This document shows, one piece after another, positions 8,581 through 12,779 of a DNA stretch of 24,886 nucleotides; the stretch's first letter is position 1, and every line of letters begins with the position of its first letter. The translations under genes were made by a program, and so were the position numbers. This DNA comes from an uncultured archaeon (GTDB lineage: Archaea > Asgardarchaeota > Thorarchaeia > Thorarchaeales > Thorarchaeaceae). The DNA is taken from NCBI GenBank assembly GCA_964458565.1, contig CAYWJO010000014.1, positions 7,360-32,245 of the forward strand, in the 5' to 3' direction. The notes beneath the pieces are model-generated. The model did not search any database, was not told the origin of the DNA, and saw only the letters and a list, made by a program, of their open reading frames with translations.

Positions 8581-9318
8581 CTACTTGGGTAAAGCCTCAT
8601 CAATCTGAGTTAAAATCGCGCCAGCTCGTCCACTTAGATGATAATCCACGTATTCAGTAAGAAGTGTACTCTCAATATTGATTTCAATAAGAATTCCATC
8701 ATTATTTTTCACAACATATGGGAATGATGCTGCAGGCTGCACGAGACCGGAAGTGCCAATGATTAGACAGGTGTCTGCAACAGCTAGTTCAGAATACACT
8801 TGATTTATGATAATGTTATCCAAACTCTCTCCGAACCATACAACATCGGGTCTAAGATTATGATTGCAGTTTGGACAATGAAGGATTCCATTCGCAGGTT
8901 CTGAAAGACGAGATCTGTATTCACATTGTGTACACTTCACAGTCCATATATCTCCATGAACCTCAAGGATTTTTTCAGACCCAGCTCTGTGGTGTAGACC
9001 ATCAACGTTCTGAGTTATGATTCTCTTAAGGCGACCATCATTCTCCCACTTACTCAATATTAGGTGTGCAGAATTAGGTTCACATTTAGATATCAAATCC
9101 TGTCTCCAGGCATACCACTCCCATACCAACTTTGGATTTCTTGCAAAAGCAGATGGTGTCGCTAATTCCATAACATCATAATTTTTCCAGAGACCATCTT
9201 TTCCTCTGAATGTTGGTACATTTGATTCCTTTGATATTCCAGCTCCTGTGAGTGCAATCAGGTGTTTTGATGATGTAATTCGCTCTGCAACTAGTTCAAT
9301 TGTTTTCATCGTGTTCAT
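8581..9318 (-). CDS. cobB: NAD-dependent protein deacylase, sirtuin class III (CobB/NpdA-like)
   Basis: TGAGISKES, PTFRGKDGLW, WYAWR (YxxR), TQNVDGLH, HG, CTQC...CPNC zinc ribbon, LRPDVVWFGE, GTSGLVQPAA. Confidence 0.93.
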   Translation of the reverse strand: MNTMKTIELVAERITSSKHLIALTGAGISKESNVPTFRGKDGLWKNYDVMELATPSAFARNPKLVWEWYAWRQDLISKCEPNSAHLILSKWENDGRLKRIITQNVDGLHHRAGSEKILEVHGDIWTVKCTQCEYRSRLSEPANGILHCPNCNHNLRPDVVWFGESLDNIIINQVYSELAVADTCLIIGTSGLVQPAASFPYVVKNNDGILIEINIESTLLTEYVDYHLSGRAGAILTQIDEALPK

Positions 9319-9427: not shown

Positions 9428-9874
9428 ATGGCAAGTAGTACGAAACAGAAGAAGCGAAGAACTTGGTTAATGCCACAGGAAGTTGAAGTTTGGTACATTC
9501 TACCGAGCATACGAAGAGAACTCACTCGCATTCTTATCGCTAAGGATATTCCTCAGAAGACAATAGCAAAAATGCTAGGTGTGACTGAACCTGCTGTGAC
9601 ACAGTATAAATTAGAGAAGTCAACTGGTAGGTCTCGTGGAGACCAAGTTCAGATTCCAAAGAAACTTCTACCCGAAGTCGAGAAATCCGTAGAAATTATC
9701 ATCAAGAAATGGGAAAGCAAAGGTCCCGAAGAGAACGTGTATGAAGCAATGACGCGTGAAGTTAATAGACTCATCAGAGTACTTAGAGATGAAGGCATTT
9801 TATGTGATGTGCATCGAGAATATTGTGAAGGTGTTCATGAAGATTGTTCGGCATGCAAAGATGGAAGACGCTGA
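9428..9874 (+). CDS. Archaeal HTH transcriptional regulator (COG2522-like) with a C-terminal Cys/His metal-binding tail
   Basis: MPQEVEVWYILPSIRRELTRIL, HTH segment PQKTIAKMLGVTEPAVTQY, and C-terminal C126-x2-H-x3-C-x3-H-x2-C-x2-C143. Confidence 0.85.
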   Translation: MASSTKQKKRRTWLMPQEVEVWYILPSIRRELTRILIAKDIPQKTIAKMLGVTEPAVTQYKLEKSTGRSRGDQVQIPKKLLPEVEKSVEIIIKKWESKGPEENVYEAMTREVNRLIRVLRDEGILCDVHREYCEGVHEDCSACKDGRR

Positions 9875-9924: not shown

Positions 9925-9938
9925 TCCTCAAGTGAGGC
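9925..9938 (+). promoter_or_regulatory. Palindrome TCCTCA-AG-TGAGGC covering the RBS of the iscS-like gene
   Basis: CCTCA/TGAGG arms at 9926-9937, 8 nt before ATG 9946. The same motif occurs before iscU. Confidence 0.5.
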
Positions 9939-9945
9939 TACCCCC

Positions 9946-11157
9946 ATGGCTTATTTGGATAATGCTAATTCCACAAGAGTTGATGAAAGGGTAATTGAAG
10001 CAATGCTCCCTTATTTCCGAGAACATTATGGAACGGCAGGTCTGGAACTTAGTCATTCTCAAGATGTTTCAGCATTAACGGGTTTGGAGAATGCTAGACT
10101 AAGTATTGCGAAAACACTCAATGCGGATCCGAGAGAAATTATTTTCACTTCAGGTTCAACAGAATCAAACAATATCGCCATCAGAGGTACAGCACGAGCT
10201 AACAGAGATGATGGAAAACATATAATCACAAGCCCAATTGAAACTCAATCAGTTCTAAAATCATGTGAGAGGCTCGAAGAGGCAGGATATGAAATATCGG
10301 TCTTGGATGTTGACGAGTATGGCCTAGTTGATTTAAATCAACTAGAGCGAATCATTCGAAAAGATACTACTCTTGTTACGATTCAGCATGTTAATAGTGA
10401 GATAGGTACAGCTCAACCAATCGAGGATATTTCTAAGATAACGTCAGAAAGAGGGATTGTTTATCATACAGATGCCACACATTCATTTCTCAGAATGCCG
10501 ATTGATGTAGCAAAAATTGGAGTAAACCTGATTTCATTTGATGCACATCATATTCATGGACCCAAAGGCATTGGCGCTCTCTACATCAGGCGAAAAACCA
10601 GAGTACATCGTCTTCATGAGGGAGGCGATGAAGAAAGAAGATTACGACCTGGAATCGAAAATATTCCTGCTGCGGTAGGCTTTGGAAAAGCTATCGAGAT
10701 TTGGGGCGCTGATGAGAACAGCTATCTTCTATCACTTAGAAAATATATCGAGAGAAAAATGAAGGATAGGCTTACAGACTTCTCAATTACTGGTCACCCA
10801 GATAGGAGAGCTCCTCACATATATAGTATCATTGTGAGCTTTATTGAAGGAGAGTCTATGTTGGTTCAATTGGATATGGATGGATTCTCTGTTTCAACAG
10901 GTTCTGCGTGTTCATCCAAAACACTTCAAGGAAGTCACATTCTCAAGGCAATTGGTCTACCACCTGAACGGGCTCATGGTTCGATTCGTGTTTCGTTTTC
11001 GAGATACAATACAAAAGAAGAGATTGATGCCTTCATTGACGCATTCGTCCCCGCAGTTGAGAGACTTAGAGAATTCAGTCCATTAAGGGATGGTATGTAT
11101 TTTGCTAGTACAGATGATGACGATCATCATCACGATATTTCAGAGGATGAATGGTGA
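9946..11157 (+). CDS. iscS: IscS/NifS (MisS)-like cysteine desulfurase homologue lacking the PLP lysine; probable pseudo-desulfurase
   Basis: YLDNA, IIFTSGSTESNN, GPKGIGALY, STGSACSS (Cys322), SHILKAIG and GSIRVS place it in group I desulfurases. DAHHIHG replaces SxHKxxG. Confidence 0.9.
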   Translation: MAYLDNANSTRVDERVIEAMLPYFREHYGTAGLELSHSQDVSALTGLENARLSIAKTLNADPREIIFTSGSTESNNIAIRGTARANRDDGKHIITSPIETQSVLKSCERLEEAGYEISVLDVDEYGLVDLNQLERIIRKDTTLVTIQHVNSEIGTAQPIEDISKITSERGIVYHTDATHSFLRMPIDVAKIGVNLISFDAHHIHGPKGIGALYIRRKTRVHRLHEGGDEERRLRPGIENIPAAVGFGKAIEIWGADENSYLLSLRKYIERKMKDRLTDFSITGHPDRRAPHIYSIIVSFIEGESMLVQLDMDGFSVSTGSACSSKTLQGSHILKAIGLPPERAHGSIRVSFSRYNTKEEIDAFIDAFVPAVERLREFSPLRDGMYFASTDDDDHHHDISEDEW

Positions 11158-11232
11158 GTTAACAGCAATCAATCAAAAATTGAGATTCGCAAATGTGTAC
11201 TAAATGAAAACAACTAAATTACAACTCACGCG

Positions 11233-11246
11233 TCCTCACTTGAGGC
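11233..11246 (+). promoter_or_regulatory. Palindrome TCCTCA-CT-TGAGGC covering the RBS of iscU
   Basis: The core at 11234-11245 is the exact reverse complement of the 12-mer before iscS, and lies 9 nt before TTG 11255. Confidence 0.5.
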
Positions 11247-11254
11247 AATTCATA

Positions 11255-11632
11255 TTGTATAGTGAGAAAGTCAAGGAGAATTTCAAGAATCCTCAAAATA
11301 TGGGAAAAATCGAAGACCCAGATGGTGTTGGCACAGTTGGAAATCCTGTCTGTGGCGATATGATGACACTATACCTCAAAATTGATGATGGCATAATTGT
11401 AGACGCCAAAGTCGAAACCTTTGGTTGTGTCGCAGCAATTGCTACATCTTCGATGACGACGCAAATGGCGATTGGAAAAACAATAGAGGAAGCAAAGAAG
11501 ATATCAAGACAACAAGTTGCAGAAGCTCTTAATGGCCTTCCACCTCAAAAGATGCACTGTAGCAATCTTGCAGCGGATGCCTTATTGTTGGCAATTGAGG
11601 ACTATGAAAATAAAATGAAGGAACAAAAATAG
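11255..11632 (+). CDS. iscU: Fe-S cluster scaffold IscU/NifU-N (MisU)
   Basis: Probable TTG start giving MYSEKVKENFKNPQNMG. GNPVCGD, FGCVAAIATSS and LPPQKMHCSNLA retain all three Cys, the Asp and the His. The ORF track start at 11204 is probably too far upstream. Confidence 0.95.
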   Translation: MYSEKVKENFKNPQNMGKIEDPDGVGTVGNPVCGDMMTLYLKIDDGIIVDAKVETFGCVAAIATSSMTTQMAIGKTIEEAKKISRQQVAEALNGLPPQKMHCSNLAADALLLAIEDYENKMKEQK

Positions 11633-11725: not shown

Positions 11726-12478
11726 CTATGGAAATAGTTCTATTGCCAAAGGGATGCCTGCTAGCACAAGGATCACAATTGTGAGGCTAAGTTCTAACCA
11801 CTTCGGTTTTGTATTGATAGAGAAGGAGCTTCCAATCCGAGAACCTAATCCTGAACCAATCAGTACAGCGAAACCTTCTATTAGTAAGAGATGTTCATGA
11901 AACCAATAGAAACATACTCCTACGATTGATGTGAAAATAGCTGCGAATAGAGCTGTTGCAATCGCTTTATGCATATCGACATTCAGAATTCTCAAAAGAG
12001 GCACAAATAAGGATCCCTCGCTTCCTCCCCTCAAGCCAGTTAGTGTATTTGATACAAATGTACTAAGACACAACGCCGCAAAGGAGGGTTTCAAATGTTC
12101 TGAAAATGAAGGAGCCAAATGATTCATGTTCAAACCGATTACAGATAATATTGAAACCAAGACAAAAACAATAGGCAAAACTAGTGCTGTAGTTGCTAAT
12201 GAGAATGCAATCAATGTGCCCAGAACCGTACCAGTAGACCCTCCGAGAATCATATATGCTCCGTATCTAAGATCTATGTTCTTTTTCTGTGATGCTGCAC
12301 CGATTATGCTAGAAACTGGAAGGGCTAGCAAATTCATTCCAAATGCCGATATTAAAGTAAATCCTATCAAGTTTAGGAGTGGAATTCTTATCGAACCGCC
12401 ACCTATTCCTAAGAAACCACTAGCTAGTCCGGCTATGAAGCCAATGATGCCTAAGAGAAATAACAGTAGAAAGTCCAT
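11726..12478 (-). CDS. TSUP family (sulfite exporter TauE/SafE) transporter
   Basis: Two repeats: AGLASGFLGIGGGSIRIPLL and LTGLRGGSEGSLFVPLLRILNVDMHKAIATAL, about 8 TM. Start placed at ATG 12478; the ORF track gives 12514. Confidence 0.88.
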   Translation of the reverse strand: MDFLLLFLLGIIGFIAGLASGFLGIGGGSIRIPLLNLIGFTLISAFGMNLLALPVSSIIGAASQKKNIDLRYGAYMILGGSTGTVLGTLIAFSLATTALVLPIVFVLVSILSVIGLNMNHLAPSFSEHLKPSFAALCLSTFVSNTLTGLRGGSEGSLFVPLLRILNVDMHKAIATALFAAIFTSIVGVCFYWFHEHLLLIEGFAVLIGSGLGSRIGSSFSINTKPKWLELSLTIVILVLAGIPLAIELFP

Positions 12479-12779
12479 GCTCTTCATCTGTCTGAATCCT
12501 GTCAGAGTAATCAAGTGATAACTCTGGAAGGATTGAAGTGTGAGGTTGTTTAAGCATTGCTATATGACGCGTGTCAATTTTCAATGAGTAGAGAAAAATT
12601 GAGCTATATATCAGCAACAAAGATCACTAAATGTGCTTTAGATTCCAAAGGACGAAGAGAAATGGATGACAGGGGGTAGGAATCAATTCTTTTCATTATC
12701 TATTATGACAAAACGAATCGGGTATATTGGGCAAAGAGATAGCATTCAAATATCGTTCATATAGCTCTATAAATATCGA

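Follow-up and report, generated by a model that had tools for sequence, protein, structure and literature searches.

The stretch of DNA analysed here (24,886 nucleotides (nt) from an uncultured member of the Thorarchaeaceae, contig CAYWJO010000014.1 of assembly GCA_964458565.1; hereafter the window) carries on its forward strand a gene for an IscS-like protein that lacks the Schiff-base lysine of cysteine desulfurases, followed by a gene for IscU. The building of iron-sulfur (Fe-S) clusters is usually taught as beginning with a cysteine desulfurase that depends on pyridoxal 5'-phosphate (PLP). A preliminary description of the locus, made from the sequence letters, had proposed that this protein is a probable pseudo-desulfurase in which the PLP site has been dismantled and the cysteine of the mobile loop left intact. 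The features on which the argument turns are the following, in positions of the window:

9946..11157, + strand: protein of the IscS/NifS type (type I, class-V aminotransferase fold), 403 amino acids (aa), without the Schiff-base Lys (homology, AlphaFold2, Foldseek)
10243..10245, + strand: Thr100 (ACT) where the PLP-stacking His104 stood (alignment, codons)
10540..10551, + strand: D199-A-H201-H202 replacing S203-G-H205-K206, with an Asp in the phosphate pocket and a His at the place of the Schiff-base Lys (alignment, codons)
10654..10656, + strand: Ile237 (ATC) at the position of the phosphate-binding Thr243 (alignment, codons, clade columns)
10909..10911, + strand: Cys322 (TGT) of the mobile loop, equivalent to E. 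coli Cys328, in the invariant motif STGSACSSKT (alignment, clade columns, codons)
11092..11154, + strand: C-terminal tail G-x-Y-F-A...(D/E)n-H-H-H-D-[LIV]-P-x-D-[DE]-W-COOH, predicted to be disordered (clade alignment, AlphaFold2)
11255..11632, + strand: IscU with the canonical Cys, Asp, Cys and His-Cys ligands and LPPQK (Pfam/NCBIfam, ligand columns)

The open reading frame (ORF) at 9946-11157 (+) is open throughout its 403 residues, and the Pfam domain Aminotran_5 (PF00266) matches over the whole protein with 246 bits. The best NCBIfam matches are NifS, IscS and DndA, and all IscS/NifS equivalog cut-offs are missed (405 bits against 531 for NifS, 367 against 643 for IscS, and 368 against 548 for another). 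The closest solved relatives are the 9wep series of lysine-bearing cysteine desulfurases, Archaeoglobus fulgidus IscS2 (4eb5/4hvk), human NFS1 and E. coli IscS; we found no paper on 9wep and the other best-matching entries of the Protein Data Bank (PDB), all of them lysine-bearing. With the annotated record of E. coli K-12 IscS as numbering reference (43% identity by BLASTP, with an offset constant at -4 through the active-site region), every residue was checked twice, by BLASTP alignment and by codon read-out, and both confirm each of the substitutions named earlier (H104T, N155S, Q183H, S203D, K206H and T243I). The Schiff-base lysine K206 is replaced by H202 (CAT, 10549-10551), S203 by D199 (GAT), N155 by S151 (AGT) and Q183 by H179 (CAT), while T76 (T72), N154, D180 (D176), H205 (H201), C328 (C322) and R354 (R348) are kept, as is the basic RRKxRVxR stretch at residues 215-222. 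Lys207 is ruled out as a substitute Schiff-base lysine, being the lysine of the GPKG motif (E. coli K211) that is conserved in all IscS. Judged from its residues, the protein is missing what a catalytically competent type I desulfurase has: the Schiff-base Lys, the PLP-holding H104, N155, Q183, S203 and T243, and a score above the equivalog cut-offs.

These losses characterise a whole clade. About 59 relatives (counted as protein clusters), 62-77% identical to the protein of the window, come from metagenome-assembled genomes assigned to Thor-, Hermod-, Loki- and 'Promethearchaeota', and the next matches are only about 50% identical. Across the 60 sequences that include the query, the K206 column holds His in 38, Leu in 12, Arg in 8 and Val in 2, so that the canonical lysine, whose presence in close relatives would have pointed to a sequencing error or recent decay, is seen in 0 of the 59. 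The S203 column is Asp in 58 of the 60, and the loop cysteine within STGSACSSK is kept in all, which together with the open frame upholds the earlier view that both are intact. The H104 column is more mixed (T 27, V 25, H 6, R 1, S 1) and that of N155 holds Gly or Ser; the position of H179 is Gln in 22 of 60 members and that of H202 is Leu, Arg or Val in 22 of 60, with no visible co-variation. The columns of the lost cofactor contacts (H104, N155, Q183, K206, T243) are relatively variable, with entropies at the 65th-78th percentile over the 60 members, as would be expected if the constraint of cofactor binding had been released and no new site fixed. T76, N154, D180, H205, R354 and C328 show no variation or next to none, and 50 columns stay invariant even when IscS1-type relatives (see below) are aligned to the clade.

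The ratio of non-synonymous to synonymous substitution rates (dN/dS) is about 0.05 for P0007/P0008, the sole pair with unsaturated synonymous sites (dS about 0.5); for the query gene dS is saturated against every relative (at most 77% identity), and only dN, 0.15-0.29, could be computed. AlphaFold2, run on a 76-row alignment, gives a confident IscS fold with a predicted local distance difference test score (pLDDT) of 87.7, low confidence being limited to three stretches (residues 34-36, the Cys loop 322-327 and the last 17 residues). The top folds in Foldseek are NFS1, A. fulgidus IscS and E. coli IscS, with a template-modelling score (TM) of about 0.9 (0.89-0.92 to NFS1 and IscS). The clade is monophyletic and under purifying selection, and the earlier contention that the loss is targeted and not general decay is borne out by the low dN/dS, the roughly 60 intact clusters, the synteny with IscU and the preserved fold. 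Clade-wide conservation and dN/dS rule out a sequencing error or recent decay.

To place the clade, 88 type I sequences, a set in which lysine-less rows were purposely over-represented, were put through a quick maximum-likelihood analysis (LG+G4), with support from the Shimodaira-Hasegawa-like approximate likelihood ratio test (SH-aLRT) only and no bootstrap. The clade is monophyletic (support 100) on a long stem of 0.49 and is nested in a group of 28 rows (SH-aLRT 96), every one of which is without the lysine and which includes the Methanosarcina IscS1 type; the sister of this group is a lysine-bearing pair, with a support of just 84. The type of A. fulgidus IscS (Af-type; motif SSND, with K->D, H205->N, Q183->A and R354->Q) forms a separate clade of 14 rows (98), from which it follows that the lysine losses were independent and that the query clade is not orthologous to the A. 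fulgidus protein (AfIscS). Since at least seven changes between lysine and no lysine are required on this tree, loss of the residue appears to be recurrent. Among the nearest representatives (149 at the 50%-identity level), 16 are without it, in several residue patterns. On the sequences compared, the query clade would be one branch of an old lysine-less lineage, its nearest described relative being Methanosarcina IscS1.

The Methanosarcina acetivorans IscS1 (MA0808) type is the nearest outside the clade, at 48-51% identity and in the same lysine-less group, and shares with it the loss of the lysine, Q183H and a hydrophobic residue at T243. It differs in K->T, H104->D, N155->Q, a retained S203, the loop STGSACFS and the lack of a tail; at these IscS1 signature positions the query clade has T/V, G/S, D, H/L/R/V and STGSACSS instead. 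M. acetivorans IscS1 is without PLP-binding residues and may work like AfIscS, but it formed inclusion bodies and was never characterised (PMC7585200).

AfIscS itself, in which Asp replaces the lysine, has no activity and donates a Cys ligand to the cluster on IscU (PMC7585200, PMC8918507, PMC13066941), so that the precedent cited in the preliminary description is correctly stated. It binds pyridoxamine 5'-phosphate (PMP) or PLP without a covalent link; the D199K variant likewise has PMP bound and is likewise inactive (PMC8918507). With A. fulgidus IscS2 and IscU (PDB 4eb5, 4eb7, 4hvk; D199K variant 4r5f) the query shares the type I fold (TM 0.90/0.95, root-mean-square deviation 1.5 A), the missing Schiff-base Lys, the retained loop Cys and the pairing of its gene with that of IscU. 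The pattern of the remaining losses is the opposite, for AfIscS keeps H104, N155, S203 and T243 and has lost Q183, H205 and R354 (THNDASND-CQ), whereas the query clade keeps H205 and R354; AfIscS is also without the acidic His-rich tail ending in Trp. Because the query clade has changed all four residues that AfIscS keeps and has a carboxylate in the phosphate site, it is fair to say that it has gone further than the A. fulgidus protein, and that it is more stripped and probably free of cofactor.

Canonical IscS, NifS and NFS1 share with the query the fold, a dimer-type architecture, the loop Cys, Arg354, the RRKxRVxR stretch and an iscU partner gene, but they have the Schiff-base Lys, the stacking His and the phosphate-binding Ser/Thr, all of which it is without. 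A Pfam scan of the window detected no hscBA, fdx or iscA in the neighbourhood of the gene. In this the locus resembles, by description only, the MIS system (MisS-MisU, PMC13066941), likewise an archaeal two-gene unit of an IscS-like and an IscU-like protein without chaperones or carriers, although MisS is described as a cysteine desulfurase, which the query almost certainly is not. A limited literature search returned no paper describing a lysine-less IscS in Asgard archaea or the query clade.

The genome as a whole (an assembly that is 93% complete) has a second iscSU pair, at the end of contig 2 (235655-238327), with a truncated Af-type lysine-less IscS (SSND, K->D) whose best PDB match is 4eb5 and with an IscU of 259 aa fused to a thioredoxin-reductase-like C-terminal piece. 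Both lysine-less types, that of the query clade and the Af-type, therefore occur in one genome, and no lysine-bearing type I IscS was found in it at E < 1e-30. The SUFBD core (SufB/SufD, SmsB) was not detected in this assembly either, whereas 12 of 21 genomes from this family do possess it; should its absence be real, the two lysine-less iscSU pairs would be the only scaffolds. Contig 25 encodes a SufS-like type II protein whose SVHK Lys and GAHC Cys loop are intact (428 bits to TIGR01979). The other sampled genomes with the clade, three in number, all have it at 73-77% identity, and on contig 25 no SufE, SufU or SufBCD lies beside its gene. SufS-like homologues only 26-28% identical to the contig-25 protein are also present in those three genomes. 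A further SufS-like type II paralogue, on contig 5 (L003:1438-2652), is itself without the Lys (ISANTG for SVHK) and keeps the Cys loop (RSGFLCAHP). A census of Asgard IscS-like genes, 84 in all, has the Af-type as its most frequent form, usually adjoining IscU; lysine-bearing forms are also present, and most of the IscU-linked copies are lysine-less. The query clade turned up there in 4 genomes, all belonging to one family. Lysine-bearing IscS/NifS-like proteins of about 740 aa with a C-terminal extension containing GLGCACKL are encoded in other genomes from the family (L038, L045, L052, L040) and look like fusions of the NifS-SelD type (selenophosphate synthetase).

The reading that we favour, and regard as reasonably probable, is that the protein of the window is a non-catalytic and probably cofactor-free partner of IscU that supplies a Cys ligand in a sulfide-fed assembly of clusters. 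A descendant of a type I cysteine desulfurase, it would now serve as structural partner of the adjacent IscU, which its dimer would bind at its tips in the fashion of IscS, and Cys322 of the mobile loop would enter the IscU assembly site to become the fourth thiolate ligand of the nascent [2Fe-2S] cluster. The sulfur would come from the free sulfide of an anoxic habitat and not from PLP-dependent desulfuration of cysteine; in E. coli, H2S feeds cluster assembly on IscU without IscS (PMC13015791). Asp199 probably stands in for the lost charge of the PLP phosphate and would keep the empty pocket folded. The acidic His-rich tail is expected to exit beside the C-terminal helix that binds IscU, where it may serve to capture Fe(II) or as a docking point for a partner. 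The ligand columns of IscU are invariant among relatives.

The prediction of the complex between the two proteins, a check that had been suggested earlier, gave a score of 0.45 against 0.00 for the best of 3 controls, with at least 81% contact agreement between runs and a partner pLDDT of at least 87. Of 80 solved complexes 58 attain that mark, and so do 2 of 110 mismatched pairs, but passing scores of 0.60 or less were had by only 7 of those 80 solved complexes and by both passing mismatches; the support for the pairing is weak. Because IscS-IscU complexes have already been solved, the score may reflect likeness only. The weakness of this prediction is one of several points that weigh against a purely structural, cofactor-free partner. 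R354, D180, T76 and H205 are invariant for no obvious reason if the pocket is empty, which suggests that a ligand may still bind. The second, Af-type pair means that two 'passive' partners would need different jobs, which the model does not explain. In some relatives, moreover, one or two unrelated genes separate the IscS-like gene from iscU.

Among the alternatives, the one that survives best is a persulfide relay, in which Cys322 would take sulfane sulfur from another enzyme, the contig-25 SufS-like protein being the likely donor, and pass it to IscU, so that cysteine would remain the source. The lysine-bearing SufS-like enzyme is indeed present and kept in all three other clade-bearing genomes, its gene on contig 25 stands without SufE, SufU or SufBCD in a genome with no SUFBD core, and the loop Cys on which a relay would depend is invariant. 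The SufS-like and IscS-like genes are not linked in the genome, however, trans-persulfuration of such a kind between type I and type II enzymes is not known, and SufB occurs in 2 of the 3 other clade-bearing genomes, where SufS may serve its usual partner. We consider this reading unlikely.

It is also conceivable, though quite doubtful in our view, that the old PLP site has been given a new function and binds another ligand or a metal (through, for example, D199, H201, H202, H179 and R348), by which it would sense iron, sulfide or cysteine or deliver them to IscU. Three His and one Asp surround the former cofactor site in the query, and D199, H201, R348, D176 and T72 are invariant or nearly so. 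The variation of H202 and of H179 (Gln at the latter), each in 22 of 60 members and with no co-variation seen, shows that a fixed His-rich metal site is not conserved; on this ground the idea of a new, conserved site for a metal in the former pocket is rejected.

That the protein is still a cysteine desulfurase, by means of non-covalent PLP or another catalytic base, is very unlikely. R354, D180, H205 and the nucleophilic Cys are kept, yet the protein has lost N155, two phosphate ligands, the stacking His and the Schiff-base Lys, and it has an Asp turned towards the phosphate site; AfIscS, which retains most of these residues and binds PMP, is inactive nonetheless, as is its D199K variant (PMC8918507). 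A decaying relic or an assembly error without function, for which the missing catalytic residues and nothing further would speak, is hardly credible in view of the dN/dS of 0.05, some 60 intact homologues in independent assemblies, conserved synteny and the 50 columns that are invariant even across IscS1-type relatives.

The tail lies beyond the conserved LREFSPL helix, has a pLDDT of 40-46 in the AlphaFold2 model and is missing in IscS1-type and most canonical relatives; Trp is the last residue in 49 of 60 members. Acidic His-rich tails without the Trp end are found on some Af-type and some lysine-bearing Asgard IscS, so that only the Trp end is specific to the clade, and the occurrence on lysine-bearing proteins rules out the tail as a marker of lysine loss. 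On IscS of other Asgard families we noted tail ends such as NHHH, EEHEHHH and HDHEHSHEHD (L029, L034, L064, L067, L072-L075, L077). The recurrence of His-rich tails across Asgard IscS suggests a shared, metal-related role in the phylum.

In IscS-IscU structures the C-terminus of IscS lies beside the IscU site, and acidic partners of the frataxin/IscX type dock on a basic stretch of IscS. That the tail captures iron or docks on the protein itself is, from its residues, a reasonable guess. The fuller proposal, that it is a built-in module which captures Fe(II) or docks on the protein's own basic patch and so makes, with IscU, a self-contained and cysteine-independent Fe-S machine, we hold to be improbable. 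In a weaker version the acidic Trp-COOH end would be a docking signal akin to the tripeptide of the eukaryotic cytosolic iron-sulfur assembly (CIA) system, which reads a C-terminal [LIM]-[DES]-[WF] signal (bioRxiv 10.1101/2023.05.19.541488). The ends of the ORFs of the genome were therefore scanned, and no wider use in the proteome was found: there are 7 ORFs ending in [LIM][DES][WF] where 6.7 would be expected, which is chance level, and Trp shows no enrichment as the last residue. Ends of the form [DE][DE]W number 2 against 0.66 expected, the one besides the query being that of the TATA-binding protein. A eukaryote-like targeting signal used across the proteome was rejected.

The gene for the IscS-like protein and that of IscU stand in a larger arrangement, whose other features are these:

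9428..9874, + strand: helix-turn-helix (HTH) protein of 148 aa with invariant C126, H129, C133, C140 and C143 (conserved columns, synteny)
9925..9938, + strand: palindrome TCCTCAAGTGAGGC, overlapping the ribosome-binding site of the gene for the IscS-like protein (sequence search)
11233..11246, + strand: second copy of the palindrome, TCCTCACTTGAGGC, just 5' of the IscU TTG start (sequence search)
8581-9318, - strand: Sir2-type deacylase, divergent upstream, syntenic in three relatives (synteny)
11726-12514, - strand: permease of the TauE/SafE family (TSUP), convergent downstream, not syntenic in the relatives examined (synteny)

The order HTH protein, IscS-like gene, IscU is repeated in relatives, where the HTH gene often abuts the start codon of the IscS-like gene. 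The Cys and His residues of the HTH protein are spaced as C126-x2-H-x3-C-x6-C-x2-C; it has no match in Pfam or among PDB sequences, and its AlphaFold2 model (pLDDT 77) has no PDB match with E<1 in Foldseek. In other Asgard families the same protein is also encoded ahead of some iscSU pairs that bear the lysine, a pattern in keeping with a regulator of the operon; it is a candidate for one that senses metals or clusters. Where other genes stand between the IscS-like gene and iscU, they are a Zn-ribbon protein with a 347-aa unknown (L096/L097 3774-5487) or an acetyltransferase/OB-fold gene on the opposite strand (L099 2774-3514).

The ORF of IscU is open from an ATG at 11204 (142 aa), but its likely start is the TTG at 11255 (125 aa), 98 nt past the IscS-like gene, which is preferred because of homology, public gene calls of 125 aa and the relatives; the 17 extra codons of the ATG-started ORF contain the palindrome. 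For both the IscS-like gene and IscU, the GAGG ribosome-binding site is overlapped by the palindromic TCCTCAnnTGAGGC. The palindrome occurs 2 times in the window (0.05 expected) and 3 times in the 3.7-Mb genome, the third copy being inside an ORF. As a conserved operator it is ruled out, since it is not kept upstream of the orthologues examined.

A lysine-less IscS is an oddity already known from Archaeoglobus and Methanosarcina, of which the query clade is a more stripped lineage. The Asgard genome studied here has two iscSU-type pairs, and in both the IscS-like protein is without the catalytic Lys. Taken with the census, in which most of the IscU-linked copies among 84 genes are lysine-less, this suggests that sulfide-fed, desulfurase-independent assembly is common in Asgard archaea and not a peculiarity of Archaeoglobus. 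The query clade is the most stripped version and probably one that holds no cofactor at all, and for this reason it would be a clean experiment of nature on what, beyond sulfur, IscU receives from IscS. The conserved tail and the upstream HTH protein with its four Cys are candidate parts of the same module. NFS1 has recently been reported as Asgard-associated (PMC12872458), and the clade may for that reason be relevant to the origin of the NFS1-ISCU core of eukaryotes. If the tail is indeed a built-in module of the kind described, it would mean that a self-contained, cysteine-independent Fe-S assembly operates in close archaeal relatives of the eukaryotes.

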